A DNA stretch of 64,000 nucleotides from Rhynchopus sp. YZ270_cl-10 (lineage: Eukaryota), in NCBI GenBank assembly GCA_964035575.1, contig OZ037841.1, positions 930,001-994,000 of the forward strand, in the 5' to 3' direction. The notes under the pieces were generated by a model that saw nothing but the letters and a program-made list of their open reading frames with translations, was not told where the DNA came from and ran no database searches. This document shows, piece after piece, positions 8,508-52,012 of this stretch. How positions within the stretch are numbered: the first letter of the stretch is position 1; every line of letters starts with the position of its first letter. Both the position numbers and the translations under genes were made by a program.

Positions 8508-9632
8508 AGAGTTTTCCTAATTTTTTTTTGTCTCAAATCTCACTCTGTTTAGATGAGGTGTATTGCCGTTTCTCGGAAGCATCGTGGCCATTTCAAAAAA
8601 AGGAAATGTTGAGAGATGTAAAAACTTTTTTGTGGGGTTTGTTGGTACAACAGATATAATACAGGGTGGGGAATCAACAATTTTACAAAAAAAGCAAAAC
8701 CAAAATAATAGAGAAAATAAATGGAGCGTAAATGGATGACTGAGTGAACACATGCCCTGTTTTTCTTCAAGGTGACTCAAATCACGCGAGGCTTACCTTC
8801 ATCGTACCAAATTTTTTCCCACCAAAGGTACACTGTCACGAGAGGGCTTTGTATTTCAACTCCTTTTTCTTTTCAGATGTAAATCACGAAATGATGAGGG
8901 ACTGCATGGCCATCCTATTGACCATTTCCACTGGAGTCCACCCTGTACACCGATCACATGCATGAAGGTACACTGTTCACGAGCGGACTGTTGTATTTCA
9001 AGTCATATCTTTTTTTCTTCTCTCTCACTCTAGCAGTTTGTAGTCTCAGGACAAACCGTAAATGAAGCGGAGGACGTTTGGGTGAAAAATGGATATGACC
9101 ACAAACAAGCAAAGAGTGGATATATCATCCTCGGTGAACTCACACAAACCAAATTTTCAAACTAAACAAACAAGTCTCCCCCTTTCCTGTAAATTCTTCG
9201 GCAAACATTGAAACGTAGATCACCCTCCCCTACCTCCACCTGATTAGATACATACCCCAAAAGCAAACCCACGTCTCTGTCTTTGGAGTCATATAAAGAG
9301 CATTTCATTTCCCTCCCCCAATAACTGTTCTTTTCCTTTTTTCCCTGCAAGGTGGGCATGTGTATGTACCTGCAGTGAAGTTACATTATTCCTTCGTGCC
9401 GTGGTCAGGAGCCATAATGTCAACAAAAAATAAAGTGGAGCGCATCCCCGGGGGTGTGCGTTCATGCAACAAAGTTTTTAAATAAAACCGTCTATACTGA
9501 ATGGTGGTGTATTGTGAATGCTTGGTATTTTTTAGTTCCAGGGCTACCCGGGGTACGTGGTCGCCGTGTGCTATGGGATGAAATGCATAAAAAAAAATAC
9601 AAAATAGACATCACCATCGACCTCCCCCACAC

Positions 9633-10604: not shown

Positions 10605-11543
10605 ATGTCGTCACGGATCGCTGTGCTAGCAACAATGGGGCTTGCGCTTGCAACGCCGGCACTGTCGCTGAGCGGGTTTGGGATGCAGTGCTCTGCGGCG
10701 TGTGGGTCGTGCTGCGTGCGTGGGGGTGCGGGGGACAACTGGCTGACGCCCGACGCAGACGGGTACTGTGTGGACGGGGCAGGGGCGCGGCAGTGCCGTC
10801 TGGGGAGCGGGCTGTGCCTGGGTGCGGACATGGCGGTGCCGGAATGTGCCAGTGTGCCGCTTGCGACAATTGCGATGGTGGAGCCGTTCCCGAACGACCC
10901 TGTAGGGAACACGTTCCTGCACGAGGGGATGGAGCTGTGGGACACGGGGCTGGACGCACGCTCATCGCTGCACGCACTGCCGCCGTACTACCTGAACGGG
11001 TGGACGGCACTTGTGCCACGTGAGAAGACAGTGTTGGGGGGGACTGAGGTGCGGTACACGTGCCCCGAGGGTCCTGCGGGGGCGTGCGACGCTGTGGTGT
11101 TCATGTACGAGTGCAGCCCGTGTGAGGCGAAGAAGGGTGACGTGCCTGCGACACTGGCAAAGGCCGGGTTTGAGCGGTCGAGCTGCGGCCCGCACTTCAA
11201 GACCGGGAAGGCACATGGACTGGGACACCACATGACGTCGTGGCGCAAGACTGTGCCTGCCGGGGAGACACTGAGCATCGAGGTGAAGGAGGACGCGGAG
11301 TGGGTTGTGTTTGCGCTGAGCCAGGGGTCGAGTCTTGTGTGCCCGATGCTTGAGGTGGACGAAGCCTGCGAGGACCCTGCGCTGCACGGGTTCTGCCAGT
11401 GGAAGCAGGGCACGTGCCACACGAATATGTGCAGGCTGTCGGCGGGGCCGTCCCTCGGGTGTGCGCCTGCGACGTGTGTGGGGAAGGACTTTGAGTCTGC
11501 CACTCCCGACATGGACGTGCCGATGATGACACCCGACAAGTGA
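10605..11543 (+). CDS. Secreted cysteine-rich protein of unknown function, 312 aa
   Basis: Signal-peptide-like N-terminus MSSRIAVLATMGLALATPALS, many Cys residues, strong GC3 codon bias. Confidence 0.85.
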   Translation: MSSRIAVLATMGLALATPALSLSGFGMQCSAACGSCCVRGGAGDNWLTPDADGYCVDGAGARQCRLGSGLCLGADMAVPECASVPLATIAMVEPFPNDPVGNTFLHEGMELWDTGLDARSSLHALPPYYLNGWTALVPREKTVLGGTEVRYTCPEGPAGACDAVVFMYECSPCEAKKGDVPATLAKAGFERSSCGPHFKTGKAHGLGHHMTSWRKTVPAGETLSIEVKEDAEWVVFALSQGSSLVCPMLEVDEACEDPALHGFCQWKQGTCHTNMCRLSAGPSLGCAPATCVGKDFESATPDMDVPMMTPDK

Positions 11544-14090: not shown

Positions 14091-14140
14091 AAGTATAGTG
14101 GAGCACACTCTAGGGTGGCTACACTAATACAACCAAGTTT
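14091..14140 (+). repeat. Sense-strand hairpin element, family E (representative copy)
   Basis: Consensus GTATAGTG..CATCCTCGGGTGTCTACACTAATACAAC..TTTT. Other copies at ~9112-9158, 22168-22217, 44234-44286, 50384-50412, 52207-52252, 59550-59600. All on +. Confidence 0.75.
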
Positions 14141-14420
14141 TCAAAAAAAAAATAACTCGAAAATATTTCAAAAAAAAAGAGAGAAAAAAAATGATTGTTA
14201 GAAAAGCGGAGCTGCTTGTTGCACCCAAAGGTGAGAGCACAGCTACGCTATTTAATAACGTTCAACAGAGAAAAAAAACGGAAAGTGGAGATTGCACAAC
14301 TGTGTCAACACAACCGAGGCAACTGCACTACTCCAAACAATTTATCAAACAAAAAAACAAAAAGAACAAAACAAAAAATGTATCGTAACGAAGGCAGTTC
14401 TGTTCAAGGCCTGCACCACT

Positions 14421-14590
14421 CACGGTGACCATACTCCGCAAACCATGTACCCCAGGTACCATGCTAAATAACATGCTATTCTGCACATTACTTTGAAATA
14501 CATCATATGTCATGCTTTTTTGCATATTGTTTACATACATTTCATGCAACAAGCATGTTACCATGGGTTTACATGGTCACATGGTCACCG
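14421..14590. mobile_element. MITE family with CACGGTGACCAT ends and CATGCTAAATAACATGC internal repeats
   Basis: CGGTGACCAT ... ATGGTCACCG inverted ends. Related copies at ~16339-16415, ~22340-22400 and ~43941-44113, in either orientation. Confidence 0.65.
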
Positions 14591-17052
14591 ACCTCCCACC
14601 GTCCCTTCTTCCCTCCCCTCCCTCCCCTCCCCTCCCCTTTTAGTGGCCTTCCAAGCTTTTTTTCTCATAGTCGATGCTGTTGTGTGTAACCCTTTAATCC
14701 CCCCCCTCCCAAGAATTCGATTTTTTCAAGTTGTTGTTGCTTTTTTAATATAAATCTACCTTTTTTCTCTCTATTTGGTTAGCACAGAACCAGCTGGGTA
14801 GTATTCCGCACTGAGCTACCCACATAACCTTTTTTCAAAAAAAACAAAAAAAAAAAACGCTGTTTTTTTGTGCAAAACAGCGAGAGAGAACATCCATCAA
14901 AATCAGGGGAAATATTTATCATCTTATCAGAGGGGTGCGTATGTGGGTTGTGAGGTGGGGAGAAAGAAATAAGGTGAGTATTCGTGACGGACATCAGGAG
15001 ATGAAAAAAAATGGGGTGAAAAAAAGAGGCAGTTAAAGTGTCGAATATACATAGTCGTCAAGACAAAAAAAAGCAGTTTTTTTTGAGGGGAAAAAAAAAT
15101 ATGAGAAAAAGGGGGTGTTTTGGTGTATGTTGTGGGCCTATCGGATTTGGTGTGACTATTTTTTTATGTGCTCCCCTCATGAAGCTTTCCCCCCGATGTC
15201 ATATTTGCCTTCTTTCCCTCCCCATTTTTCCCAAGAAATACAAAGAAAGTACTTTGCTATTTGGAGTATGACATCCCCCCCCCTTTTAGTGGAAAAAAAA
15301 ATGAGTATAAATCACTCTTGCGTGTCCCCCTTCCTAAAACTGGGAACAGACGTGGTCAGGGATACATGCCAGTTTTTAATATAACCAAACGTGGTGAACG
15401 AGGTATTAGAATCGACGGAAGGTGTGTTGTCTGCAAATTTGTCTTTTTTCCAGTATTTAGTGCTCCTTGACGACCCAATATTGCGTACTTCTTGCGCACT
15501 TAGTGTGTAGTTGGCGGGGGTTTTTTTGGATTTCTGGGGTACCAGTATTTGTAGTTTTTTTTTTTACCACTCGCACAAACTGAACGAAAAAAAAACGCAA
15601 CAATTTTTGCAGAGCAATCCACGAAAAAAAGGTGTTCGCAAAAGGGTTCTTAGGTTCATCTCATAATTTCCCTTCGTTGCTTCTGCGTCAGCTTTGGCTA
15701 GGCGTTTTGCACTCTCAACTTCACTTTCTTGTTTCACAAAGCAACACTCCGCAGGGTTCGATAACCCGCGGAGTGTCAGTGCCTGCGTCCGCCGAGGCGT
15801 TTGCACTCTCATTTTATTTTATGCTGTATGTGCGCAAGCGACACATTCACAAACGCGTTCTCTCCATTATTTTATTTTATTTTTGCTTTCCCCCCCACTG
15901 TGTGTTCCACGCATCACAGCCCCCTTCCCTTCCCTCTATATGTGTGCACCAAAGTGCAGTAAAAAGTAACGTTTTTTTTCTTGAAAATGTAGTATAATTA
16001 CTTCCCCAGGTGTGCACAAACAAGAGCACAAAAGCAAAAATTACAAAAGAAAAAAAAAAATACTTCACAACAAACAGTGGCATGCACACCGCGAGACGCC
16101 CATTCATCATTGGACCCCATTGTAGTTCAAGGTGACTAAGCACTGAGGCTTAGAATCATCTTACACAACCTTTTTCTCTGTCTTTTATTTATTTATTTTG
16201 TTTTGAATATTTTTTTTCTGCGTTTTCGCGCATGTTTTGTTTTTGTCGAATTATATTCGCACTTCCCTTGTGTCATCCGGATGGCTGGCACCGTACGGGT
16301 TCCTTCCCCACCACCCCCCCCTACGCACATCAAATAGTGCACAGTGATCATATTAGCCCCAGGTAACATGCTAAATAACTTGCTATTTGCATGTTACTTT
16401 GAAAATGCATGTTTTACAAAGACAAATTAAAAAAGGTCAGGTTTTTTGGGCAAGTTTAAAGGAGAAGAAGGAGAAAAAAAAGACGTTAACTGAAAGAGCC
16501 GACACAACTTCGTGAGGGAGGTGGGCTGGGACAACAAAAAAAAAAGCACATAAAGCAACAACAGAAGCAAGCTTATCTCGGAGAAAATAAATTTTTTTTT
16601 TCTCTCTCCCACGAAAAATCGTTCCCTCCACACATTTTTTCCCCCCAACTTTTTTTACCCCATTCCACCCTCATTCCCCCCTCTTTTATGCAGGGTAGTG
16701 TACGTTATGGCATTGACCCTTTTGCTTCACCCCTCTTTGTCAAATCAGACAACCTTTCTAGATGAGTGTGCATGAGTGCATCCCCGAAAGTATCACATTT
16801 TTCATCTATTAAGATTTTTCTTCTTCTTTTAGTACTCTCTGGGTGGACTCTTTAAAAGGCCCTCCCTCCCCCCATCCCCTCCCACCATCCATGACTTGGC
16901 GCCTTCAAAGGTCCAAAAGAAAAACTCCACTTTTTCCCCTCACTTTTATTTGGAACAGAGTGTTCTCAAACAGAGGGTAAAAAGTTGGTCAATTTTTTTC
17001 CGACTCAGATTCTTTTTTTTGTGGTGGTAACTGTGTGTTACATTTTTCATAA

Positions 17053-17147
17053 CAATGAAGTGCTCTCTAGGGGTTCGATAACCCGTGGAGAACCATGTGC
17101 CCTGCGTCACGCTGATGAACGGTGAGGCGTTTTGCACGTTCAACTTC
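17053..17147 (+). repeat. Sense-strand hairpin element, family C (representative copy)
   Basis: Consensus CAATGAAGTGCTCTCTGGGGTTCGATAACCCGCGGAG..GTGCCTGCGTCCGCCGATGAACGGTGAGGCGTTTGCACTTTCAACTTC + T-tract. Other copies at ~2382-2500, 2551-2630, 9903-9972, 15683-15722, 15744-15812, 21572-21596, 21981-22075, 43410-43452, 43530-43560, 45651-45708, 50214-50275, 51401-51448, 53893-53935, 59281-59360, 63394-63415. All on +. Confidence 0.85.
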
Positions 17148-17893
17148 TCTTTTTAGATCAAAAAAAGGTGATAAAAGGTGATGATCCTAAGCACGGCTTA
17201 GGATCATCTTATAAACCTTACTTTTATTTTTTTGTTCAGATGGTGCTCTTAGGGTCGTCTGAAGTATTGTGGTTTTTATTATTTGCCTTTATTGGATGTA
17301 TCTGGTAGAGAACATCCTGTTTACTTCCTCTTCTTTGACTGGAAAGGAGATGAAGGTAATGTATTGGGGTGAAGAAGAACTGCAGGCTGCCATCCTGTGC
17401 TGGTAGCGGCTGTGTGTCAGTGATATTTCAGGTGTGGGTTATCTCGAGCATTTGAAATATAACCACATAGACCATGGGTCTGTGTACATCATTCCGTGCT
17501 GTGAAAAGCAATGAAGTGTTATGTGCAGGGGGGAGGGACGCATTTAGCTTTACAAAAAAAAATCTGTTTTTTGTCCTTTCTTCCAACGATCATGGATGTC
17601 CAAAGTACTTGAAGTATATCAAGTACTTGATCCCCCAAAAAATCCAATACTTGATACTTCAAGTACTTGACACCCTATTTTTTTTTCTAGTACTTTTTTA
17701 CTTGTTCTCCCTCTGTCAAGTACTTTTTTCACAAAAAAAACGTCAAGTACTTGATCAAGTACAAAAAAAAAGTGGGTACTTGATCAAGTACTTGACGTTT
17801 TTTTGCGAAAACAAGTACTTGACAGACTCTGCCAGAGGGTAAAAAAGTAAAAAAGTACGAGAAAAAAAAATACACCACGCTGGATGATAGGGG

Positions 17894-18293
17894 TCACATG
17901 ATATAATCACATGATATTTCACATGATATAATTATATCATGTGACATGATATAATTATATCATGTGAAATATCATGTGGTATATCATGTGGTATATCATG
18001 TGGTATATCATGTGAAATATCATGTGGTATATCATGTGGCATATCATGTGGTATATCATGTGACATGATATAATTATATCATGTGAAATATCATGTGGTA
18101 TATCATGTGGTATATCATGTGGTATATCATGTGGTATATCATGTGGTATATCATGTGAACCGGAAAATATATCATGTGAAATATCATGTGGCATATCATG
18201 TGACCTATCATGTGACCTAAGTAGCACATGATAGACTTCCCGGTTCACATGATATACCACATGATATTTCACATGATATACACATGATCATGT
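17894..18293. repeat. Subterminal tandem array (ATATCATGTGGT-like 12-mers, some inverted)
   Basis: About 30 degenerate ATCATGTG/CACATGAT units at the left end of the nested element. Confidence 0.9.
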
Positions 18294-20680
18294 GGGCCCA
18301 CAAGTTACACACGAAAAAATTCGTGAGCTCAGTTAGTTGTCAAAGACGTCTTCCACCATGCACTGAGGAGATAATGATCCAACAATTTACAAGAAAGATT
18401 ACTTAACCTACTGCTGGAAATTGCCAGGTCGTAGTAACACACAAAGTGTGCCTCCGTTCGGGAAGACCGGATATTCTAGAGACCAGAAAGGCCTCAAGAA
18501 TATCTTCCGGTAGTCAAGGTATAACCGAGTGAACGGCCCAAGACCCCCGTGGAGAAGTTAAATGTTGTAATGCTATCAAGTAGAAACTGCGAACACTGTC
18601 TTACCCTCCTCAATACATGGTGGAATATGTCTTTCACAACAAACCGAGCTCAAGAATTTTTAAACTTCCCTGAGGGAATGCGACACTACGCAAAATTTAC
18701 CACCAGACCCTGTCTTCGTACACCTTCGGTGCAACACTGCAGACAGGCCAAACTGCGTTGGACTCAGAGGAATTCCTGCTGCAGGTATCAATGAGAACCA
18801 AGTCCCAGCAACAAGGGGCGCCTTTTGGCGGGCGTTGTTGAGGGTGTTTGGGGTGCAAAGTTTTCCACAATTTTGATGCGCGGGTACAGAAGTGTTATCT
18901 TGTTCTTTCATCTCTAGGAATGTAAATGTCAATCGCGTTTAACTACCACTAGGGCTTGTTCAGTGAACCCACGAGGGGTCGAAGGGGGTTGGTTATCCCA
19001 TATCTATCAAAGGTTGTGTCGACCAGGCGAATCCACTATGTTACGCTGTATGATGATAAATCCGAAGAAATAACAGTGCATAGCAACTGCAGGAAGTTTA
19101 TTAAAAAGAGTGCCTCACGCTACACAAACCACCACCCGCGATTGACTTAGATGTTATAACAAAGAGAATTCAGAACAAAACAACACCCTGCCCCATACAC
19201 ACTAAATTGTCATGCTTCAAGAGCATGCCTGGGCCAAAATTACTGTGACAAAAAAGGCAACAAGACCACCCACAAGGAGTGTGAAATGTGCACTGGTTTT
19301 CTGGGGGAACGCAATATTTTCTTGTGCCTCGTCCTCCGGAAGCAGAGGACAGACTTTCCGGAAGGTTTCCAAAGTCGAATTTCTTGCACCAGCTATGCTC
19401 CCTGGTTAATGGCTATAGCAGTGACTGACAAAAGGTACCCACCCGGCCCTTCCACCCCCAGAATTTCGTCCGCAATCCGTAGAATTGATACGGGTGCACG
19501 CGCGTGAGTTGTTGAATGTCGGACACGCGCCGAACCTTCTCATCGCAATCGTTGATACAGTCCAGATTTCACGATCCTGTGATGAGTGTAAATGTGGGGT
19601 GTGATTAAGTTATGGTCGCTTGGAAAAGAAGTTAATTGATGACTCCCCTGAATTTGAGGATGTAAAAAGACAGGGATGCAAAAGGTAGTGTAAAACCCCC
19701 ATGTTTAGTGAAAATTGTATTTTTTGTGGGGGAGATGAAACCATACCTTGTCTGCACTGATTCGACCGATGCGCCTCTGGTTCTAAAAGTTGTTTTACAA
19801 ACATGTCAATGCGAGGTTTTCTTTGGATTTTTTTGGGTAATTTTATGACCTACCAACGTCGTACCAAAGTCAAATTTCTTGCACTAGCTATGCTCCCCGG
19901 GCCAATGGCAATAGCAGTGACTGACAAAGTATTCCCACCCTATCCCCCTATGAAGTGACTATGAAGTGAATTATTCAGCACTGAAGGCTGTGATAAGCCT
20001 TGTGTGCGTACAACAGATGGCAAGCCGTTCAGGTTCAATAACAGCGTCGCTGAAAAAAGCCTTTGCAGACTACGTCAACGTCGCCAGCCAGAAAGAGGCT
20101 GATGAGAAGAAGCTGACCCTGTACAGCATCCGCCGCAACTGCAAGGGAGTGCTCGCCACGTGGCTTTGTGGACTGAGGCTGCGCAGGTACCCCCTCCGCC
20201 AAGGTCAAGGGCCAGGCGTATGCGAGGCTACAACGGATCGCAGAAAAGGTCGGGAGTCTGGATAAGCTCGACGTTGCCGAGCTTTAAGGCGCCACCGAAG
20301 CCCCAGACAATCACGGTAAGCCCAGCGGGCTTACCGTAGTTGTCGTGGTGGTTGCTTGCGATGTCCGTCAAAAGGGACATCGCAAGCAACCACTCACCTG
20401 CTGTCGAGTACGACAGGACGAATACGTTACATACTCAGTGCACAAGACGTTGGTGGAGGAAGGGAGCCAACATGAAAGAAGAGAGAGAGAGAGTTCAAGT
20501 GCAATTTTTTTTTTTTTTTAAAGCCAAGATGACCACGCCTATTGCTAAAGTGGGTTCCCAATTCCGCCCCCCCTGCCCCTGCCCCCTCCCCTTCCAGTTC
20601 GTATTTTTGTTTAGTTGGTACGCTACATACGTCACACGCAACAAAAAGAAAGTAGAGACTGCACAACTTGGTAAAAGCAA

Positions 20681-20717
<37 letters not shown>

Positions 20718-20870
20718 GGTGTGCAAAACCGCGTTTTAGACCCCCACAGATGCTCAAAAGTGCCACATTTTGCTTTTAATGGCCTCAAATCGTCCAAATT
20801 AGGCCTATATAGGGCAAAAAAAAAAAAATCGAGAGTCCCTTTCCCTGGGAGGAGATAGCCACCGAGGGCA

Positions 20871-21296
20871 TCACATGATATTCGACATGATATAATTATA
20901 TCATGTGACATGATATTTCACATGATATAATTATATCATGTGAAATATCATGTCACATGATATTTCACATGATATATTTCCTGGTTCACATGATAGGTGA
21001 CATGATAGGCCACATGATAGTTCACATGATATATTTACCGGTTCACATGATACTTTACATGATATATTTACCGGTTCACATGATAGGTGACATGATAGGC
21101 CACATGATAGTTCACATGATATATTTACCGGTTCACATGATACTTTACATGATATATTTACAGGTTCACATGATACTTGACATGATATATTTACCGGTTC
21201 ACATGATAGGTCACATGATAGGATTTACCGGTTCATATGATAGGTGACATGATATGTCCACATGATAAATTCTATCATGTGACCTATCATGTGAAC
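20871..21296. repeat. Subterminal tandem array (CACATGATA units interspersed with ACCGGTT)
   Basis: Mirror array at the right end of the nested element. Confidence 0.9.
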
Positions 21297-22860
21297 CTAC
21301 CAAATCACCCTATCATCCAGCGTGGTGTAGGGTATCAAGTACTTGATTTCTGTCAAGTACTTGATCAATCTTCAAGTACTTGACTGTCATTTTGAGAGGA
21401 AAAAAAAGGGGGGTCAAGTACTTCAAGTACCATAAAAAATCCGAAAAAAGTACTTCAAGTACTTTGGACATCCATGAACGATGGGATGCAAAAATATATT
21501 TTCGCAAACGAAAACAATCAGAAATACCTCGTGTGCTGTCTGTAAAGTATCCCAAAAATCTTATCATTTAAAGAGGCGTTTGCACTTTCAACTTCTCTTT
21601 TGGTGATATTTGTTGGGTGCTTAGAAAATACCCCCCCCCCCCCCCCCCCAGCTCTTAGGCTGGGGGCGAATTGTTGACCACAAATTCCTTCTCCTCCCAG
21701 CGTGTTCACAGCACGATACCGATAGTGGTAAACCAAGATGTGTTTGTGTGTCAGAGAGAGGCACATGCATCTTTCAAATTTTATTCTCTTTTATCTTTTC
21801 TTTTCTTTTTCTTTTTAAAAAACCCCTCACGTGGCAGACCAGAGGTTTTCGTATTTTGTGTCTGTCCCAGTCTCAGCCACACTCTCGGCAATGCTTATGT
21901 ACCTGCATAACAACCTTCCTCGTGGCAGATGCATGCCTTCTTTTTTTTTGTGGTGGTAACTGTGTGTTACATTTTTCATACCAATGAAGTGCTCTCTGGG
22001 GGTTTGATAACCCGCGGAGAACCATGTGCCTGCTGTTCGCCGGTGTACGGTGATGCGTCTTGCACTTTCAACTTCTTTTGTATCCGTCTCAATCTCTTGT
22101 CACACTCTTGAGAGAGGTGTGCTGTTAGTTCCTGGGGCCGTTATTTATTTTTTCCCCCAACAAAAAGAAGTATAGTGAAGCATCATTCGGGTGTCTGCAC
22201 TAATACAAATACGTTTTCAAAAAAAAAGGGATGCCAAATCTGAGTAGTCAGAACCCCACCTCCGTTGGGTGGGGTTTGAATCGCCGATCGAAACAAAATA
22301 AAAAGGTGACCGTCCCCCCTCTCCCCTCCCCCCATTTTTAGCACGTTGCGTTAACTAGGGGGAAAAAATGGCATGTTACCCGAGGCCACATGGTCATCGT
22401 GTTTGGCAAGCAAGGGTGTGGGTGGTTCTGAGCAGAGTATGGTGCCAGTGGACTATGAACACCATGTAACATCACCTCCAACATAGCGCACCTGACCCTT
22501 GAAACGCTTCGAGCGGGGACATGGTTAGCCACCTTGGAAAGCTGCACTACTTTTGTGCAGTAGGGTGTCTAGTGTGAAGTGCATGGAAAAAAACAGGGGA
22601 GATGGCTTTCTCTTGCATCAGGCCGTACCGTTAACCGCAATAGGTCTCCTAGGCTAAAAGCCTCTGGCCGACAGAACAATGTAGGTAAGGGAACGTCAGG
22701 ACCAACATCACCACCAATCACCACCCCATCAGGAAGCCCGGGAAGGGTATCTTCTTTTCCCCCCCACCCAAACCCCTCCCCCCACCCCAAACCCCTCCTC
22801 CCCCCACTCCCCCCCACTCCCCTCCTCCCTCTCTTTTCTCCTTCTCTTTAATTCTTTACA

Positions 22861-25800: not shown

Positions 25801-28800
25801 CCAACGGAAATCGCGGTTCGAGAGATCACCCACTCCCATATCAGTGTGCGTTGGGGTCGTGGGGTGGTCTCCGAAAACCAAACCACCGGGGCCGCAGCAC
25901 CAACCGAGATAGCATCTGCCTGCGACAGCAAACGCGAGGTAGCAGACCTCGTTGAAAAATACCTTCTCAAAGTGGTTGGCCCCGACGACGACTACTGCAA
26001 GGAGATTACCATTCCTGGAGACACAATGGCCTATGACATACACTGTCTTTCGATCAACTGTTGCTACTCAATTTCGGTGAAGGCGTTGACAGAAGGGCAA
26101 TGGGGGCATTGGTCTAACCCAATATTTGTTGCAATCCGCGCAATCCGGGTACGATTAGTAGAAACTTCGCAAGATTGGTTGAAATTGAGTTGGCATAACA
26201 AAGCAATTCCGGATGGAAGACCTAGAGAGCAGTTTATTACCCTCATTGGAAACGCCAGGGCAACAACGAAAACACTTCCTTCTGGCAGCGACACAGAATA
26301 TGTTTTCACAGAACTCAGCCCATTAACAGTCTATTCTGTACATCTCCTCTGTGTCGAGCAGGTACCCTCCTATGTTAAGAAGGGTGGTTGGGTTGGGCGA
26401 GGAGAGGACGGTGATGTGTCGTCCCTTCCAGAAGCAGGACGTCCAACGGATACGGGGATAACCATAGCGTTGCCGCTGACCGCTGCGGATTATTCCTCCT
26501 TTTACACAGACAGTTGTTCGTTTTCTACTCTTGCGAACATCGCGTTGGAGGTGTCCAACGTAGGGGAAAACTTTGTGACAGTACTATGGAGCCGTGAAGT
26601 GCATGCCCACGCTGCAGAGGTTCAACGCGAAAAGGACGCAGATTACGAAGTCTTCTGCTGTGCCCTTGACGGCAGCCCCCCATTTGAATTCAAAAAAAAA
26701 GTTCGCGGTACCGAAACCACCCTAACCGGGCTACCATACAACTCCCTCTTCGAACTTCGAGTACGCAAAGTCAGTCTATTAACAAGCGCATACAGCCGTG
26801 CTGTGACGGTGCAAACGTTAGATAAGGTTCGCGTACATCTCGGCCCCCCTGGTGTTTCTTCCGACGAGCTTGAAACGCAGATCGGTGTAGGGGAGGATTT
26901 TTTATTGTTGAATTGGGTGCGTGGTGCAGGGAAGCCTGCGTCGCACACTTCTTTTGTAGTGCGGTGCGAAGTGGTCGATGGAGAAGGCGCGCTTCTCCAG
27001 GACGCTGAAGAAACCCCGACACGCGAGACCAACACAAAACTCACCGATCTCAAACCGGACACCCGCTACCGCGTCTCTGTACGCAGCATAATCGACGACG
27101 AAGGAATCGCACGACATGGTGAATGGAGTGATGGCATCACCCTTTGCACCCTCTCCCCGATGCACGTCCGTGTAGTTGGGGTTACCGAAGAAACAGCGGA
27201 GGTTCGTTGGCTTCGTAAAGGGGAGATTCATGGGGAAACACCGTCAATTCATACGATCAGTTCGTACCACCTCAAAATCCATTCGATTCCGAAGAATGAT
27301 TCCGAAGAGGTTGTTGTGCTAGATGAACGGCAGCTCCTCGAAACGCACCCAGAGTTTGTCTCCAGAAGCATTCGACTGACCGGACTCAAGCCGAACCACT
27401 CCTACACCACAATCGTCCGCGCCTCAACAGAAAACTCCTGGGGTGCCTGGAGCACCGGGATCACCTTCACCACCCTTCCCCTTATGGGGTTGAACGTTAA
27501 CCTCGTTGGGGAGGAATGCATATTCATTTCTTGGGCGAGACAGCTTAATGCAAAGAGAAGGTCAACGAGGGAGGTGGAGACGGCGGATGCGGTGGAGCTG
27601 GCGGAGGTGGCAACCTGCGAGCTGTCGGTGTCGACGGTGGGGAAGGACCGGGTGCACTTCAGCCGCCGCCTTCCTGCTTCGCCTAGCCACTATCGTCTCG
27701 AGGATTTGACGCCGAACATGCAGTACTCCTTTAGCCTGCGGCCTTGCTACACCTCTGGAGAGTATGGCATATGGTGCGATGAAATCTACTGCTGCACGTT
27801 GGCGCCGATTACAGTTGAAGTGAGCCGAATTGGAGAGACATTTGTGCATGTGCAATGGTCACGTGCTCCACAACAACGCATTGCTGCCCGTCTCCGCGAA
27901 CAACATTCGCAACAGCAAAGAGACTTCGAGACACAGCAGAGGAAGCTTCAGGATGAGATAGAGGCGTTGCGTGTGGGTATAGACGATGGGGGTGCGTTTG
28001 AGACGCAGTTTTTGTCGAATCAGGGGGGTGGTGGTGGGGGTGGAGGCCAGCCTGCGCTCACCCCTGTCGCATCGAACAACAAGCTTGAGCAAATGCTCTG
28101 CATGCAACAGCAGCAGCAGCAGAAGCAGCAGCACCTTGCCAAGCTCCAGGACCTGCAGCTCCTCGAGCTTGAGCGGGTGACACGCTACCCAGACGGAGAG
28201 GACACCCGCTACGAAGTGGTCATCATGGGCAGTGGGGTATGTTCCTGGATGTATTATCTTTTCTACCCCCGTTCACGGTATTGGGGATCTTTTTACACCT
28301 TCTGTTGTTGGCCGCAGGGTGTGCTTTTATCCGGGGTTGGTATTGTACGGTGGGTCAGTTGGAAGTGTGCCTGCATCGGAACTACCATTTTTCTTTTGTG
28401 ACTGCAACAGTGTTTGTCTATACCGGGACACGCTTTTTTTTTGGGGTGTAAAATAAACGCAGGAGGCTTAGGTTCTTCCAACTGCTTCCCATATTGGAGA
28501 ATTTTTCCAAAATAGCTTGTTTTGTCACGAGCGGGCTTTGTATTTCAAGTCAACTTTTTTGTGTAGAGTAATCTGCTATCCATTCTCCATTCTCCCCCAC
28601 CACCCCCTCCCTCCTCCTCAGGCCAACGACGACAGCGCTGATGAGGACCGGGACAAATCGAAGCCTTTTTCGTTCCGGAGGCGTATTAATTGCAGTGAGG
28701 GGAAGGAAGGGGAGAGCCGCACTTGCAAGATGGACGGCCTGCAGCCACACGCATGCTACACCGTGCGGGCCCGCGCGATGTACGGCAACGGCTACAACGT

Positions 28801-34489: not shown

Positions 34490-37400
34490 ATGACAACTCT
34501 TCCGCCGGTAGGGTCTATCGTCGAAGCCTTTGGGTTGAAAACGTATGAGGCTGTCAACGGACAGCGGGGTACTGTTGTGAAGCATCAAACCGGGGGAGAT
34601 GGCAAGACCGTTCTCCCTTTGGTGCAATTCCCTGAACCGACAGGAAAACTTATGCTGAAACCCACTAATGTACGCGTCGTTGACGTCGGAAGCACACCAG
34701 CCGCACCAGCGCTTTCTGACAGCCAAAAAGAGCACCACAACCTCAGCCTCAAATACCCTAAGGGCACTGAGGTGGAAGCAACCGGGTTGAAATCTCAAGC
34801 ACATCTGAACGGTGCAAAGGGAAGGGTAGACTCCCTCCGCGCAATGCCTGAAGGCGCAACCAGAGTGGTCGTTGACTTCGGTCCACCCCATGGCCTCAAC
34901 GCCCTGCGTGCAGTCAACGTCAAACCCTCCGAGAAAACCAGACAACGCACAGAACGTGGAGGCTCCGTCAGCCCCCGCTCCCCTCGCGAGTCTTTGACAA
35001 GAAAGTCGAGCTCCCCTTCTCCGAGGGATTCGTTGACAAGAAAGTCTTCGTCGCATCGTGGGTCAATCATGCAGGGCGACTCCCGCAGGATGTCTGTCAG
35101 CTCCAATGCATCACGGTCCTCGAGAGGGAACGTCCGTCGCGATTCCTCCAATTCCATGTCCCCTGCAACAGGTCTGGTCACCTTTCAGGACAGATACGCA
35201 ACATTCGCTTCATGGCCTGCACATCTCCAAGGCGGCCAGGTCAACCCACGAGAGTTAGCCTTAGCCGGGTTCTACCACAATGCATCCCAGAAGGACCCTG
35301 ATCGGTGTACCTGCTTTACCTGTGGATATTCATTGGTGAATTGGGGTGCCAACGATGTACCATGGAATGAACATTCAAAGCACGTTACCACCTGTGCATT
35401 TGTTCAAGCACATAAGGCGTCATTGAAGGCATCTGCTTCATTAAAGGGAAAGGCGCGTGGCAGCAAAGAGTTAAAGCCTTTAGACGAAGAAGGGTATCTC
35501 AAGAAGCAGAAGCCCGGGAATTTCACAAAGGGGTGGGATGAGCGGTACTTTGCGCTGAGGGGGACGACTCTGTACTATTATGAGGAGAAAGGGCAGATTG
35601 ATCTGTCCCGAGGCTGTCAATGCACTGTGATTGATACCGATAGCACCTCCTTTACCGTGAATGGGGTAGGACAGACGCGAGAAGCCTTTGCATTAAGAGC
35701 AAGCGATGAGTTCGAAAGAAATAAATGGATGGAGGCGTTAAACGGATCGAAGGAGAGGCCTATGTCGAAGGACGATATGGAAGCGTTGATGGGGTTCGAA
35801 ACTGCGGAAGCGGAGACGAGAACACAACTGATCTTCGAGGCTTCGCAGCATACTACTTTGCTTGCAGGGAAGTGTATTGTGCGGTCTATGAAGATCTCGT
35901 CGATTCTTGAGAATGAATTTCAAGAAAAAAATGCGCGTCTCAAAACTGAGCTAGAAGAGGTTACTGCATTCGGAGATTTACAGAAGGAATTTCAAAAAAG
36001 GCGTAGTCAGCTGCATCTTGCACGGTGCCTGCAGGCAACGACAACGCAACAGAATAAGGCATGGCTGTACTCTGCATGGAGACAGGCTGCTGTCCCCACT
36101 TCTTCGACCACTCCTGAATCGGAGGCATCGGATCGTGAGGCAGCTGCGCGCACCTACCTGACCCTCAACGAACAGCAGGAGCGTTGCGCCCTCATGACCC
36201 ACCTCCTCACCCTCACCCTCGCAGACCTAAACAAAGGCTCCCGCTCGGTCACCTCTCTCCGAGAGGAGCTTGACAAGGAAAAGGCAAAGAGCTCTGCCGG
36301 AGGGGTATCCGCTACCATTGCGAGCGGAACTGAGGTTATTGCGCATGGTCTCAAAAATATGGCGTCGTTAAATGGAAAGCGTGGAGTCGTCAAAGAAAAC
36401 CAAATGATGAAGGACGGCACGAACGTTACTTTAGTAGAATTTCCAAGCGAAGATGGGACTCCTGCACCGCCGATTCTCTTGAGGATTGGGAATGTGTTTG
36501 CAACGCCGCCTACCTCGGTTATTAACCTTCTTAACAAAGAACCGCTGGCGAAGCTCTCTGAAGCACAATCAAGAATTGAAGCCTTAGAAGCAGAATTGAA
36601 GGGAATGGCCTCTATAGACTCTACCGCTGCTTCAAGCACCGCAACACGCTTAGAAGAAGGCGCTGCAAACATCCAACGCCTGGAAACCGAAAAAGCCCAA
36701 TTAGCAGCAGAATTGCAGACTGCAAGAAGTTCCTCCTCCATCGCAGCCGATGTAGGTTCCGACCCTTCCTCTTTTACGTCAGACCCGAGAGTCGTGTACA
36801 GCCCCCTTCCGCTGCAAGGTTCTCGCGTTATTGTTCATGATTTGACCTCGATGGAGTCGTTGAACGGGAAGATCGGAGAGGTTTTGGAGCATACAGCCCT
36901 ACCAGATGGAACTGATGTTTCTAAAGTCCGTTTTGACGATCCAAACACAACAGTATTGCTTCGAAGGGAAAGCACGACTCAGGTCCCATCTGAGACCACA
37001 TTGGAAAGGCTCTTAGCTCATTTGCATGCTCCGTTGTTGGCGGAAAATGGGAGTCTGTCGTTAAGCAATTCTACCTTGCTTCAAGAGGTTGAGGTGCTAA
37101 GGGCAAATGCGCGTTCATCTGCGGATTCTCCTGGAGAACATCGTGAAGGGGTGACGGTAGTGGCGCATTCTCTCTCAACGGATGCGGAGTTAAATGGTCT
37201 TGCCGGGGTGGTAGTGGAAAGCAACAATCTTGCGGATGGCGCGCCCTCGAGTTTGGTTCGATTTAACGTTCCGAAAAAAAATGATGACGGTGTGATGACC
37301 TATGTAGAATCTCTGAGGAGGCTGCGCAACGCAAATTTGGATGGTCTACCCCGAGAAGAAGTCGCAGCGGTCGTCAAATTGGACCTTTTAAAAGAGCTGG

Positions 37401-40400
37401 CTGCAGTGAAGGAGAAGCTTGGTGCTGTGGAGTCGGAGCTGTTGGTTGCCTCTTCCCATGCGGACAGCCGGGCGGAGGTGGCTGCTGTGGGGTCATTGGA
37501 TGTGGGTTCGAACGTCATGGCACATGGTCTGCGTAACCGTGCAGAGTTGAATGGACTGAAAGGGAGGGTTCTGCAAAAGCAGGTTGCACCTAATGGAACC
37601 GAAGCCTTGGTGGTCGACTTCTTCGAAAAAAATATGAAGCTAGCGTTAAGAAAGGACAATTTGGCCCCTGCCGCGCATCCCGCCGTAGTAGCCCTGCTCG
37701 AAGAACCTCTGTTGGCAAAAATTTCGTTATTAGAAGCGAGTTTGGCGTCTCCACCTCCTCCACCGACACCACCAACCCCGCTTACCCCAGCCCCAGCAGA
37801 ACCAACGAATGACCTCCCCGAAATCGGGAGCAATGTCATTACCCACGATATTTTAGCAGACCCAGACCAGAATCATCGATTTGGAACCATCACGGAACAC
37901 CGCGAGCTTCCAGATGGTGGTTCCGTATGTGTGGTCTTGATAGAAGGTGAAGGAGAACGCACGATGCTGTTACGGTCGGGACAGTGTTCGGTCCTCCCAG
38001 AGCAGAAGGTGTTGGACGCTTTGAGGCAGCCTGCGGAACGGAAGCAAAAAATGGCTGAAGCGGCCCTAGAAATGGAGAGGATGAACCACCGTGCGCTCCA
38101 ACGCGAGGCGGAAACCATTTCAACACTTCCTCCGGTAGGCTCTTACTTTGTTGCAACGAATTTGATGAACGCTCCGAACACTAACGGGCGCTTAGGGAAG
38201 GTTATTGAAATGAAAACACTCAATGAAACTACCGAGGCAATTGTTGCTGACATTTTTGATGCGGGGAGCACCGAGGAGGAAGAGAACCGGACCACGATGA
38301 TGTTGAAGGCAGGAAACACATTTCAGATCGAAAAGGAATTGTATGAAGCGATCGTTTCAACGATAATGGCAAAGGCGGAGGAGGTGAAGGGACAGCTTGA
38401 GTCAGATCTTGCTATGCTAAAAGAAGGCGACGCAGAAAGACGCAAACAGAACACAGACCTGGAGGAAGAGATTCGCACCTCTGCTGAACGCCTCTCGGGG
38501 GTAGAGCAGGAGTTAGAAGCAATGGAGGCTACCGCAGGCACCCGACAGGCCGAGGTTCTGCTTCTCCAGAAAGAGCTGGAGGATGCATCCCGCGCCCGCC
38601 TCGATCAAGACAACACTGTCGACACCTTCACCCCTCTCCCCCTTCTCATTGAACAAGGCCGTTCCGTTCTTGTTGTTCCCCCAGCAAACAATAATGGTCC
38701 ATCTCGCCCTCAAAAGGCTACCATAGTCAGCCAGGTCGACGAAAACACTGTGTGTGTCAAGCTTGCCTCGGATACGTCTGCGAATATCGGAACTTTGGTT
38801 GCAATGTCTACTTTGATTGCACTGCCCGAGGCGGGAGGGGTGGATATAAAGGTAGCACAGCGTCGTCAGGTACAACCTGAGGTGGGGTGTTTGTTGAAGG
38901 TATTCGAAACGAAGGTGGACTCTGATGGGAACAAAGAGAGGATTGCGGTAAGCAAGCGTGGTGTAGTGGTGTCGCGACTCGATGCAAGCAGGGTGTGCGT
39001 GAAGGTGGATGGAGACAGCTCTTCTGATGCAGGCGAGATTGTCGACATCGACGCAGTGCTGCCGCTGCCTAACGCAGAGGTGGAGGACGCATTGCTAGCA
39101 TCATTGCGAGCAGAGCTGTCGAGGGTGACCATGGAGTTGGCAGGAGAGCGGGCAGACGCGGAGGCATTGAATGAGAAGATGGCGGGGCTGGAAGCAGAGC
39201 ACCGTGAGGCATTGGAGGCGTCGACGCAGCGGTTGGGGAAGCTGGATGCCTTGTTGGAGCAGCAGCAGCAGGCGCAGTCGCAGTCGCCACAGAGGTATCT
39301 TGCGGGTGGTGGTGGTGGTTCTGGTTGTGCCTTCTGCAGTGACCTTCGTCGTGAGGTGCAGGAGCTCCTGCGCCAGTCCGAGGCGGAGCGTGTGTCGCAG
39401 CAGCACCGTCAGGACCGCATGCTCGGGGCACTGCAAGACCAGGCGCGGTCCAGGTCTCACGAAGAGGCGAGGCTGTTCTCGGTGATTGATAGTCTGCAGA
39501 GGAAGGTATCAGGAGTTTTGTTTTTTTGTTTTTGTAAATTTAGGGATGAGGGGGGTGGGATGGGGTCAACAACGTTTATACACTTTTATCATCAGCACCT
39601 CTTTACGATTTTTCATCAACAATCAAATTCAAAACCAAGCGTTGTCCCCGCTAACGATAGTAGTAACAAACTGAGAGGCACATTTCCTCCAAAAGGTTTT
39701 TTCTATTTCCCCCATCAAAATCAATACGACGAAACCCCACAACCACTTAACCCTCCTCCTCCTCCTCCTCCTCCCCTCTCACACAGACCGAAGGCACAGC
39801 AGTCTCTCGTGCATTTACCCCGATGGAACAGTCGCCACACCTTGCTCTCATCGCGGGGGCGACGTTGAATGGATATGACACAGACTACCACCGTGTGCTC
39901 CCTGATGGGGAGCTGCACAACGCCTTTGCGGCAATTGCTTCGGAGGCTGCTGCGGTGGCGGAAGAGCACGCCCGCTGCGAGGCAGCGCTCTTACGCGACC
40001 ATGCTGCCGCTGCTGCCGAGCGGCGCGACACTTCGGCTATTCTTTCTCAGCTGACCTCCCTCCGTCAGGAGATGCTCGACACCAGACGGAGAGCGCTTCA
40101 ACAACAGATGGACCTTCTCCAAGCGGTCCACATCCGACGCGATGCAGAGTCAGACCTACTGAACGACCTCGAACGCACCGCACTCACCCACCACCACGCC
40201 CTCAACGCCCACCAACACTCCCTCCTCCAAACCCTTCATAGCCACGACGAATACAGTGTGAGAATGAACGCAGAATGCATCGACATCTTACAGACCACTC
40301 TTGCAGAACACTGTTCTCTCGAGGAAGGTCTTGCTGGAGCGGTCGCACGACTGCAGCAACAAGGAAAGCCTAGCAACAACGCATACCCCCTTGATGAGTT

Positions 40401-43066: not shown

Positions 43067-44814
43067 GGTGGTTTTGTTTTAGATTTTATAAAAGATTCGT
43101 GGTTGTTGGCATGGCTTCTCTTGTAAATATAATAAGTGAATATGGAGAGGGGGGTGACTGATGTTTCAACAGTTTTTTTAAATAGGTCTGTGCACGAGAG
43201 GCGCATTCATATTTCAAGTTTTTTTTTTCTTTTCAGCAAAAAAAAGTGGGAGAGGGCAACATGAAAGGGTGCATCTCCATCACACTTCATTTCAAAGTTT
43301 TTTTTTTCAGGTGAAAAAAGGTTTCACCTTCATGGGTGCAGCGTGATGTATGTAGTTTTGTGTGTGCGCATTTTTTGTTTTTGTTTTGTGTTTTTTTTTG
43401 TTTTGCTTGCAGTATCTGCGTCCGCTGAGGCGTTTTGCACTTTTCAACTTCTCTGTTTTGTTGTTCAGATGCGTAGCCTTTACTCTGTGCGTACTATCCC
43501 CCAGTTCATCCCTCCTTTCACAGAGCGTAGGAACCCTGCGTTGTTTTGCACTATCAACTCCACCCTTTTTTATTAGATGTGTGTGTGTGTGCCCACGAGA
43601 GGCACATTGTTCATCTCATCTCTCCTTTCTCTCCATCTTTTATTTTTTTTCCCTCGACTGAGATGCGTTTTAGCTTTCAACGACTCTTTTGTATACTATA
43701 AATGGCCATGTGCCACGCAAAGTAACAAACTCGACATTTTCTTTTTACTCCTCCCTTTCTTTCGTTACAACTGACTCCACACGTGAACCATGTGTGTGGA
43801 AAGATCGGAGGATTATCTTTTGCCCGCCTCTTGGGCTTTCACCAGTATAAAAAAAAAAATTAGCATTTTTTTGTGAAATGTAAAAATTAAGTTCAAAGCT
43901 AAGTAACATGCAAAAAAAAGCATGTTATTTAGTGTGTTACCACGGTGACCATGTGACCCCGGGTAACCTGCTATTTTCCTTGTTTCGTGACTACACGTGC
44001 TAAAACGGTGTCATGCTAAGTAACATGATTTTTTGCATGAAATGCATGTAAAAAAGCATGCAAAAAAAAATGCATGTTATTTAGTACGCTACCGGGTCAT
44101 ATATAGTTACCATGTGTATTTCCTTGCATCTCCCACCTCCCCCCAAAAGCTTTGTAATCCTCAATTATATCTCCCGTTCCCCACCGCCCCGATTTCCCAA
44201 AAAAAAAAAAAACAAAAACAAAAACAATACCAGTATTATAGTGGAGCTCATCCTCGGGTGTCTACACATGATGCAACCTAGTTTTCAAAAAAAAGAAGTA
44301 ATTCATGCCTCGTTGCATTGTATGGTAATTGCTATCGGAAAAAAAAAAGTATTTGAGTGCAGTTCTTCCCCAGAGTAGGTGTAAAGTGTTTTTTGTCGTC
44401 TTTTTTTTTTTTGAAAAGACAGATGTGCAAAGAGATGCACATTTGTCTTACAATTGTTATTTTTTCTTTTTTTCTCCCCCCTTTTTTTTGGGGTGATAGT
44501 TTTGAGTATAGAACCTACTACCTAGCGATTCGTCGATACAAAAAGAACAAAAAAAGAAGTGTCAAGCATTTCACAGATGGGTGATGCAAGTAGTACTTCC
44601 ATCCCCGTCGTACATCCTTCTAATGGTTGCGCACATTGTGTCATTTTCTGATGTATTTTTTTCGCCAAAATTAGAACCACGTCAAAAAAAAAATCTTGTG
44701 AACAATATAAAGGTTACTCTTAAAAGGGTTTGACGACATCTCTCTTCGTTTCTACCTTTTTTTTTGCAGTACAAAAACGCTTCGAACAACTTTGAGTACA
44801 GATCTTTATACTGT

Positions 44815-48500: not shown

Positions 48501-50559
48501 GCAGGCACAGGTCCAGGCTGCGCAACAAGCTGCTCAAGCACAGGCTCAGGCCCAAGCTCAAGCCCAGGCCCAAGCACAGGCACAAGCTCAAGCACAGGCC
48601 CAAGCTCAGGCTCAGGCACAAGCAGCTCAGGCTCAAGCTCAACAACAGGCACATGCAGCGCAGGTTCAAGCTCAAGCCCAAGCTGTCGCACAGGCCCAGG
48701 CACGTGCCCAACAGGCAGCACAGGTGCAGGCTCAGGCACAACAAAACGCACAAACTGCGCAACGCACCCAATCCACACAAAGCCTCCCACCTCTGCCGAT
48801 GTGCGAAAGCGACAAGAGCTGCCGCGACATCAACGATGCTAGCCACCAGCAGCACTTCAAGCACACCTGCAAGATCGAGGGCTGCCCGCAGGCGAAGGAG
48901 GAGTGGCACACACGCTACTTCGAGCACGAGGAGTGCATCGACATCCACGCGGACGGCACGCCTCTGCAGATTGTGGGCAACTGGGAGAAGATCAAGGTGT
49001 CGCGCCTGAAGACCCTCATCAACAAGCATCTCAAGATCCCTGTTGCGGAGCAGACACTGCGACGTGGCGACATTGAGCTGGCGGACCCAGACTCGACGTG
49101 CAGGGCGTACGGCGTAAAGGCTGGTGTGGTCATCAACGTCATCAGGCCCAACTCACAGCAGGTCGCACAGCCACCCGCAACACCCACCAGCACCGCCGCC
49201 TCCGCACACAGCAACGGCCTCACGAACTCCACACCCACCTCACCACCGCACAACACTGCGTACAACAAGCACCTCCCGAACAGTGCCTTTGCTGCGTCCT
49301 TCCCGATGCGTATGTAACGGGCACAGTTATTTTGCGCGATAACGATAATGGTAAAAGATTGTGAGAGACACATTTGTTTTATTCTTTGTACTTTCATCCG
49401 GATGGCAGGATTACAGTGGGTCAGTTGGAGGTGCCTGCAGCAACAACTGCTATTTTTTTGTTCGCATATCAGATGTAAACCCCTCGAAATGGATTGTAGG
49501 ACTGCGTGGGTTGGGGGTCCACCCACGGTGTTCTGGTCATGTACCAAAGGTAGACTGTTCACGAGAAGGCTTTTGTATTTCAAGTTAAATTGTTTTTTCA
49601 CATATTTTCCACACCTTTTCGCAGAGCAAGGCAATGGTGTGGCACAGCAGCAACAGCAACAGCAACAGCAACAACAACAACAGCAGCAGTCAGCGTACAT
49701 CCCACGCGCCTACCAAGCGGCAGGTCGCTCAATGCACGCACCGGTAGTATGTTCCAGCACCTTTCCCCACCCTGACCTGCAATGCGATTATGCACCTACA
49801 CCTTATATTACCTTTTCCCCCTATCTTTCGTCGGTTGGTGGTTACTATTGTTTAATGCACAGAGAGAGGGTTTTGTATTTGTATTTTTGTTTTTGTTTGG
49901 TTTCCCTCTTTTGTGCAAAGCACAGTTTTAGTTTCTGTGTGTATTTCGTCGATTACAGTCGCAGTATATAAACATCGGTCAAAAAACATAGATGGAGCTT
50001 TCTGATTTTGAAAAACTTCTTTTATTTGCCCCACATTAGTTTATCACCGACTGTACTCAATTTGACCACCTCCGCATCCACCTCCCCTCTCGTACACAGG
50101 TCAACACTGTCGCGCAGCCTGCACAAGCGCAGAACGGCACCCATGAACCATGGACGTATGTTGCCCCCCACCCCTCGTTTATATCATTACCTCCGTGTGT
50201 CATATGTAATGCTCTCTGAGGGTCCGATAACCGGGAACTGAATGAACCGGTGACGTGTTAGCACTTTCGACTTCTCTTTATGATTGCCCAGAAAAGCCGC
50301 TCTTAAGGGTGAGGACAAACGATGTCTGTACCTTATGGTTGGGTTGGTTTGTGTAGTATTTTTTTTTAGCCAAATTTTTTTAGTGTAAAGTGGTTTCGTC
50401 AGTACAACAAAAAGAGGGAAATCTTTGAAGTATTTTAGCCTTTTTCGGGCGGCATTGAGGACAGATCCTGTAGCAAGGTGATTGTTTGACACAACAAAAA
50501 ACATACCACACCACAGCCACGGTGGTCACGGTGATACTGCGTACGCGGCCTACCAATAG
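45515..50559 (+). CDS. Membrane-anchored low-complexity protein, ~1049 aa: N-terminal TM helix, Pro/Thr and acidic tracts, poly-His, QA repeat, two PBZ-like CCHH fingers, ubiquitin-like domain
   Basis: Inferred exons 45515-45541, 45857-46124, 46417-48032, 48292-49309, 49625-49746, 50100-50155, 50517-50559 (total 3150 nt, phases consistent). TM segment [22 protein letters not shown]. The terminal mini-exons are less certain. Confidence 0.75.
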
Positions 50560-50892: not shown

Positions 50893-52012
50893 TATGTTTT
50901 TCTTTAAAATACAAGATAGGGGAAAGGGGGTTTCCACCCAAAAGGGGGCGGGTCGTGGATGTGTGTGATTTGTGTGTTTGAAAGCAAGGTGTGTGGGTAA
51001 TCGATACGGAAGATTTTCCAGTGGGTGTGAGGATGGGGAAAAATGGGGGTTTTTTTGTGGAAAAAGTGGATCACGTCCTCAGGGGGGTGGTGTACTCGGG
51101 GGGGGGGTTTTAAAAAATTTCTCCCCAAAAAAAAATGCACTGATTTCTATTTGCACACCTTCCTTTTCATCCCTCACCAACACCCCCCTCGTCCCCCTTT
51201 TTTTCTTTTGCTTTTATGTACAGTCGTCCAAAGTTTGGCAGATTTTGGAGATTTTTTTTTCGCGAAATTCGGCGCCTTTTAGGGCTGGTATCGTATGTGG
51301 GTCAGTCGGAGGGGCCTGCACCAACCATTCTTTTTATTTCAAGATGACTAAGCATGAGAGGATTAGGATCATCTTATAAAATTTTCTTTTTATTTTACGC
51401 GAAGTGCCTGAGTCCGCCGATGTATGGCGAGGCGTTTGCACTATCAACTCCTCTTTGAACGTCAATTGTATTCCTTTGGGCGACTGTATTTTCTTTACCC
51501 CCTCCTCCCCCATCACCTTCTCCCCCTACCTGCTAACCGCTACCTTGTGTGCATCTGCATGGAAAGCACAACTGTTGTGTTCTCTTGTACGGTGCCCTCT
51601 CCCCAGATAATAATGCCAAAGAGCACAACAACCGCGTCCCCACCCCTTTTAGATGTGTGCACAGTGCTGCACATTCTTTTCTTTCTGTTTGTTCAAGGTG
51701 ACGTGCACGAGAGGTTTAGGGTCATCTTACAACAACTTGTCTTTTCTTTTCCCCCCCTCTGTCTTATCCGCGGCATATCTCAACCGAATCTGGTGGTTTC
51801 CGCGATGAAGAAAAAGAGAGAGAGGGGGAGGGAAAGGGGGAGAGAGAGAATTTTTTTTTTTTTTTTTTTTTTTTTCAAAACCTTGTTCGTCTCTTGTTAG
51901 TTGGTAGGTAAAGGCTGTGAAGGGTTGTTTTTTTTTTGAGTTGAAAACACACGGCAGTTTTTTTTTTGGAAAAAATAAAAGCAAAAATAAAATTTTAAAC
52001 TTTGTGATGGAA

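Follow-up and report, generated by a model that had tools for sequence, protein, structure and literature searches.

Strictly sense-oriented stem-loop repeats in a diplonemid genome, apparently undescribed so far and possibly copied like SINEs

Introduction

Short repeats that can be drawn as hairpins raise the question of which molecule folds, double-stranded DNA or a single-stranded transcript, and of where the fold has been under selection. The question is posed here by a window of 64,000 nucleotides (the whole stretch of DNA that was analysed), for which an original prediction had held that compensatory base changes and G.T wobbles identify the sense strand as the folded and selected molecule. 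As set out below, its conclusion on the sense strand is likely right, its proof by covariation is not made, and the strictly sense-oriented set of stem-loop repeats is real and apparently undescribed so far.

The window stems from the nuclear genome of a eukaryote, a diplonemid whose nearest named homologs are in Diplonema. The long ORFs are carried by the + strand and encode SET, fibronectin-III, BIR/PH, U-box/WW and exostosin domains; for the exostosin protein four homologs with 41-42% identity were found, of which the two named ones belong to Diplonema ambulator and D. japonicum. All four introns tested are GT-AG introns with a G/GTATG donor and join their exons in frame, and this donor pattern has been reported for Diplonemidae (PMC12621601). 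Because the long ORFs lie on the + strand and gene clusters of Diplonema run one way and are probably co-transcribed (PMC10161547, which also reports RNAi), the sense strand of transcription is very likely + across the whole window. The gene content also includes a large protein exon (34490-39506) that combines BIR and PH domains, a pairing unusual for a protist, and an ORF without Pfam match (10605-11543), for which overlaid contigs with 3-5% divergence and approximately 8-14x single-copy depth indicate a multicopy gene family; diverged relatives were seen in run X6.

Definitions and leads were drawn from PMC7315354, PMC6681497 and bioRxiv 10.64898/2026.10.18.760011. Such elements were not found described in the literature on diplonemid repeats, SINEs and introns, a scope outside which the repeat section of PMC10161547 (Additional file 1) lies, and the words "hairpin", "stem-loop", "SINE" and "palindrom" are all absent from seven supplementary files of that paper.

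Results

Iterated nhmmer searches from seed copies, applied to the whole window and to the reversed window as a control, yielded 66 matches in six families (A 16, C 14, D 15, F 8, E 6 and H 7), every one of them on the + strand, while the reversed window gave none. The elements are dispersed non-coding repeats of 40-120 bp in six or more families, located in introns and spacers; outside exons, a copy occurs about every 0.6 kb. Their exclusion from exons was likewise observed directly, as 0/66 matches fall in the hand-drawn exons (25.4 kb), six lie in the four tested introns, and a weak match within the 34490 ORF is placed in a likely intron. The GT-AG intron at 28237..28621 (+) of the gene for a 2427-aa fibronectin-III protein, whose four exons are in frame with no internal stop, holds copies or fragments of H, D and A, and the GT-AG intron at 49310..49624 (+) an H copy and a full-length A copy. 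By self-BLAST, 50 same-strand and 0 inverted pairs were counted between elements, compared to 21 and 14 for the other repeats of the window (Fisher p 6e-7). T runs (168) and A runs (145) are about equally frequent, so that the supply of targets does not set the polarity.

Additional same-strand repeat pairs outside the six families (15373-15456/58052-58131, 4305-4408/58146-58249 and 3325-3465/56603-56735) imply that the list of co-oriented elements is incomplete. Another dispersed repeat occurs in both orientations (14450-14561, 16357-16404, 44020-44067) and is a useful DNA-type control. A further element of ~3.9 kb (17583-21484), likely a non-autonomous DNA transposon, is bounded by long inverted repeats in which a 12-bp palindromic unit forms arrays (17871-18267, 20870-21329); its interior has very high summed depth, its ORFs lack a Pfam match, and a related end is located at 287-441.

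Chaining is common, with gaps of at most 60 bases between 16 of 65 successive matches. Examples on the + strand are H, D and the 3' hairpin of C, joined by T-rich linkers, at 51282..51455; D, a short A and a full-length A, delimited by nhmmer, at 8767..9008; and a 5'-truncated D fragment followed by a 5'-truncated C fragment at 15637..15726, directly upstream of a C copy at 15738..15820 (+). This latter copy, of subfamily C2, consists of a 5' hairpin (9-bp outer stem, GGGTT-CGAT-AACCC cap), a short 3' hairpin and a T-rich tract, and folds with a z-score of -4.8 on the + and -4.2 on the - strand. The complete two-hairpin form of subfamily C1 is represented by 17053..17153 (+), with ends taken from the depth step of paralogous contigs and z-scores of -3.0 (+) and -1.5 (-); it has approximately 40 bp of upstream flank in common with another C1 copy at 21983..22079 (+). 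A typical D copy at 16127..16174 (+) shows a basal G.T pair and a 2-base bulge. The E copy at 14093..14149 (+) lies 90 bases past the stop of the SET gene and is flanked by A-rich rather than T-rich sequence.

No known RNA was recognised in the elements. The window gave 0 Rfam matches at gathering score, and E-value scans added sub-threshold hits only, of which those on the elements were unconvincing. ARAGORN and Rfam detected neither a tRNA nor another known RNA as the head of an element, and no complete Pol III promoter was recognised by eye. A B-box-like hexamer, GTTCGA, is seen in family C only and sits 20 bases inside the 5' end. The TTCGA motif of this family (17071-17084, 2427-2440, 59304-59314) is retained where the closing stem differs, and is similar to the T-loop of a tRNA or to a B box of Pol III. 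D, F and A have in common an ACGAGAG loop (e.g. 63341-63351) with the GNRA-type tetraloop GAGA, replaced by GCGA at 8785 and 53637; this loop is reminiscent of the sarcin-ricin loop of rRNA, a likeness that Rfam did not support. Identities as ribozyme (hammerhead, HDV-like, twister), snoRNA or rRNA fragment had been suggested by known motifs and were dropped, Rfam giving no support. A metagenome pattern scan returned 0 matches for family A and 0 in viral contigs; its three matches to a C motif were judged chance because their flanks lack the remainder of the element.

To compare the strands, 51 hand-bounded copies and 197 ordinary non-coding 45-mers were folded, the latter with fewer shuffles and a damped z-score. 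The energy was lower on the + than on the - strand in 46 of 51 copies (background 94/197), which makes a dsDNA cruciform unlikely, and the z-score was lower on + in 37 of 51 (background 103/197); only 17 of 51 copies fell below a z-score of -2 (background 14/197). With RNA energies, the + strand consensus sequences of D, E, F, C1 and C2 reached z-scores between -2.1 and -4.4 (D -2.1, E -2.2, F -3.4). On the - strand, E and F lost the signal, and D (-1.9), C1 (-2.0) and C2 (-3.8) kept most of it. With DNA energies, D (-0.7), E (-0.4) and F (-0.8) were not significant on either strand, while the C1 and C2 consensus was still significant and C again better on +. The consensus sequences of A and H folded no better than shuffles (z +0.6 and +0.7) and are not significantly structured, and the best stems are strand-neutral. 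Taken together, the claim that the folded molecule is the sense strand in single-stranded form, rather than a dsDNA cruciform, is supported mainly by evidence on which the original prediction did not draw: the co-orientation with the genes, the folding asymmetry of the strands, and stems in D, E and F that score with RNA energies only.

The argument from compensatory base changes did not hold up: four alignments (D, C, E, A) showed no excess over shuffles, and most of the cases quoted for it are one-sided wobble changes. The pairs were counted on MAFFT alignments of 6-14 rows each, in which power is low and subfamilies shift register. Both sides had changed in 3/13 pairs of D (shuffle mean 2.4, reached by 233/500), in 2/20 pairs of C (reached by 261/500 shuffles), in 0/15 of E and in 0/11 of A, so that significant covariation, the mark of a conserved structured RNA, was not found in alignments of this size. 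RNAalifold on MAFFT alignments called two pairs for C and none for D, numbers this small owing to the register shifts between subfamilies, and 13 pairs with no double change for full-length A. The sole clean double change, from G-C to A-T, lies between the C1 copies at 17053 and 21983; as these differ at ~11 other sites per 100 bases, it is unsurprising. Between C1 and C2 the 5' hairpin is kept with different arm sequences, which is a change at the subfamily level.

The perfect 13-bp stem at 17180-17208, previously taken as a sign of RNA-level selection, looks more like the product of a template switch. It belongs to a D copy (17175..17222, +) whose 5' arm matches the reverse complement of the 3' arm exactly, down to the bulge, and which carries a 5-base insertion relative to the sister copies. 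Likewise, the near-perfect 14-bp stem of an F copy (44414..44462, +) has a 5' arm that is unlike those of its sister copies and matches its own 3' arm. Template switching in replication yields perfect stems in one step (PMC8794818), so selection on RNA is not needed for them, and both stems are likely template switches.

The wobble argument survived in part. All arms quoted for it were recovered within 3 bases of their expected places (the loop at ~22005 reads TGAT, not CGAT), and every non-Watson-Crick pair in these hand-picked arms is G.T, none A.C. The excess is, however, due in part to composition and in part to C>T changes. When small symmetric mismatches within Watson-Crick stems were counted in a way that treats the two strands equally, 23 were G.T, 3 A.C and 48 of other kinds, while dinucleotide shuffles (30 sets) already gave 14.6, 6.5 and 43, i.e. 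69% G.T; the observed G.T:A.C ratio was reached in 1-2 of the 30 sets. Family D supplies seven of the 23 G.T mismatches, mostly at one inherited site. Relative to the family consensus, G.T-making changes affected 40/549 and A.C-making changes 25/484 paired sites (p 0.2), and changes of the same types 42/545 and 34/436 unpaired sites. In a genome-wide table of C variants (40 of 41 rows, positions 17084-17118 only, variants of at least 2%), C>T averaged 3.1% at six paired and 3.7% at four unpaired C, and G>A 0.8% at six paired and 0.7% at three unpaired G. Since C>T exceeds G>A equally at unpaired sites, albeit few, a C>T excess on the + strand can supply much of the variant G.T excess. G.T pairs are fixed in the basal stems of A (two pairs, 11/11), D (12/14, with A-T in the other two) and C (9/9), although invariant pairs by themselves prove nothing.

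For family C, contigs of two runs (X1 and X4) were overlaid on 16990-17170. One C copy was overlapped by 734 (X1) and 519 (X4) contigs; summed depth, which is not a copy number, rose in X1 from 109 on the unique flank to 1.1-2.0e5 at both hairpins, with 2-4e4 on the linker, and in X4 from 82 on the flank to 1.4-1.8e5 at the hairpins. This suggests copies on the order of a thousand. The five times lower depth of the linker implies that the two hairpins are also found apart or with other linkers, a swapping of modules. The boundaries in the overlay are sharp (17053 and about 17153), with T-rich loose contig ends, and no empty insertion site was seen among the best-supported contig rows of a 20-kb overlay.

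Loss at the 5' end exceeds loss at the 3' end, 45 of the 66 matches reaching the former and 58 the latter end of their model. The flanks are T-rich on both sides except in family E, where both are A-rich; as the upstream flank is T-rich too, the downstream T-rich tract may be target rather than tail. A poly(A) tail is absent in five of the six families. The E copies at 14093-14149, 22170-22225, 44237-44293 and 59549-59607 end in TTTTC, after which an A run follows; E, alone among the six, may be a retroposed family with a poly(A) tail, or it may be a 3'-end signal. In 39 full-length copies examined for target-site duplications, the best flank repeat averaged 5.8, compared to 5.3 in mismatched pairs; repeats of at least 8 were found in 7/39 copies (9% in the control), all of low complexity, and such flanks could hide a duplication.

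Discussion

We favor, with a probability of roughly 0.55, the explanation that these families are SINE-like and non-autonomous and are propagated via an RNA with one or two predicted stem-loops. The stem-loop might be recognised by the reverse transcriptase of a retroelement encoded in the host genome, by analogy with stringent LINE proteins, which read such a structure (PMC4176376); in D. papillatum, about 2,500 gene models belong to retroelements (PMC10161547). Selection on the stem, its G.U pairs and the loops would act in source copies, whereas inserted copies would mostly drift, an occasional template switch perfecting a stem. The strict polarity might be explained if insertion were tied to the polycistronic transcript, or if antisense copies, which would meet a sense partner roughly once per kilobase and supply RNAi with duplexes, had been lost. 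SINEs of stringent LINEs are similarly short, non-coding and of high copy number, retain the 3' end more often, place a stem-loop by a simple-sequence tract and form modular subfamilies (PMC4176376, PMC7315354). The elements share with SINEs that they are short, non-coding, dispersed and of high copy number; they differ in that ARAGORN and Rfam found no tRNA, 5S or 7SL head with A and B boxes on them, only the B-box-like GTTCGA in C, and in their strict polarity. Our claim is therefore that they work like a SINE and not that they are SINEs, as neither a Pol III-RNA head nor a clear duplication was found. Against this explanation also stand a poly(A) tail in one of six families at most, the families A and H, which fold no better than shuffles, and 26 scanned ORFs in which no reverse transcriptase was found.

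The original prediction comes closest to another explanation, which we regard as rather unlikely, namely that the host maintains these RNA elements and that each copy works in polycistronic pre-mRNA, in processing, stability or protein binding, like domesticated Leishmania SIDERs. Its claim of selection on the sense single strand can be kept for source elements, which appear selected, and not for each genomic copy, where none was detected. Among frequent C variants, transversions affect 3/15 paired sites (mean 0.46%) and 9/14 unpaired sites (2.65%; p 0.013), some protection of pairs that would also fit host maintenance, and at consensus G.T sites 21/26 changes are transitions and thereby create a Watson-Crick pair, compared to 141/294 transitions elsewhere (p 0.002), an excess to which hairpin repair in DNA or wrong polarity could contribute. 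Both results favor real pairing in amplifying lineages. In the window copies, however, transversions are equally frequent at paired (79/1033) and unpaired sites (74/981), although alignment error would dilute a difference, and the 5' arm is lost in many copies, which argues against selection on each copy; the fold is thus likely selected in amplifying source elements more than in each copy. Strict sense orientation, the density of the copies and a hairpin followed by a U-rich tract fit maintenance by the host, while a position that is not fixed, with several copies per intron, does not. Elements as 3' splice signals were rejected, given that a pyrimidine tract plus YAG follows 13/52 elements and 51/215 ordinary T runs, i.e. 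shows no enrichment.

SIDERs are several hundred bp in length, and structured RNA reportedly matters for the action of SIDER2. In Leishmania, SIDER1 and SIDER2 share with the present elements a euglenozoan host, co-oriented gene clusters, non-coding dispersed copies (about 1,000-2,000) and a sense bias (PMC2323293, PMC2689281). In contrast to the elements, they derive from ingi/L1Tc, carry a 79-nt signature and in part (19%, PMC2323293) duplications of 11-19 bp, and favor sense over antisense by roughly 4:1 (PMC2689281). The elements described here are 40-120 bp long, also intronic and 66:0 in orientation, with no duplication found and no signature or HDV-like Rfam match. This polarity is stricter than that of SIDERs and also counts against the SINE-like explanation.

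It is doubtful that the elements are introner-like or related to noncanonical introns, in which case end-paired RNA would be excised, re-inserted in pre-mRNA, reverse-transcribed and recombined into the locus, forcing the sense orientation. By the same doubtful route, the families would be tiny stem-loop RNAs moving via polycistronic pre-mRNA, sense-only and without duplication, and would represent relatives that are not spliced, or leftovers, of the noncanonical introns with paired ends that took over in hemistasiid diplonemids and in euglenids. Introners of Micromonas, for which this route explains sense-only insertion restricted to transcribed regions (PMC3879977), and fungal introner-like elements are also repeated, have a predicted stable structure and leave remnants in ordinary introns (PMC3879977, PMC3609843). 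The noncanonical introns of Hemistasiidae and euglenids occur in the same phylum, pair their ends on the sense RNA and have a similar length, hemistasiid medians of 37 and 91 nt being near the 40 and 100 bp found here (PMC12621601). D, F and the short A begin with a donor-like AAG-GT. However, introners are removed by the spliceosome, have defined ends and interrupt genes, while the elements interrupt no exon (0/66) and sit within introns and spacers. Furthermore, in C the GT is found 7 bases downstream of the 5' end, A replaces the G of the D start in 2/14 rows, and no fixed 3' AG was found; the host introns tested are canonical, and hemistasiid ends are C/G-rich, unlike those of the elements.

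Non-autonomous rolling-circle elements of the Helitron/Helentron type, in which one displaced DNA strand folds, are a still less probable source. They would account for the missing target-site duplication, the T-rich flanks, the retained 3' ends and the chained composites, Helitron ORFs are known from Diplonema papillatum (PMC10161547), and C folds with DNA energies too, better on +. On the other hand, rolling-circle replication alone leaves the 66:0 co-orientation unexplained, and the D, E and F stems are not significant on DNA energies. Helitrons end in the consensus TC...CTRR; the element ends seen in the family C overlay do not fit it, and no separate terminal hairpin was seen after the 3' arm.

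Least probable, and already disfavored, are MITE-like dsDNA inverted repeats or cruciforms with a G.T excess due only to strand-biased mutation and composition, since the near-equal C>T and low G>A rates at paired and unpaired sites, the G.T-rich shuffles and the strand-neutral best stems that would suit them are outweighed by a polarity of 66:0 where other window repeats lie both ways and MITEs occur in either orientation, by the fixed basal G.T pairs of A, D and C, and by arms that are bulged instead of forming terminal inverted repeats with duplication.

The element set is probably a variant of short retroposed elements, and if these are simply decayed SINE-like elements, their interest is descriptive. 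Several very short, strictly sense stem-loop families would reveal how repeats multiply where transcription runs in long one-way blocks and the genome nonetheless has introns and RNAi, and the elements are a testable candidate source of the noncanonical introns of Euglenozoa.
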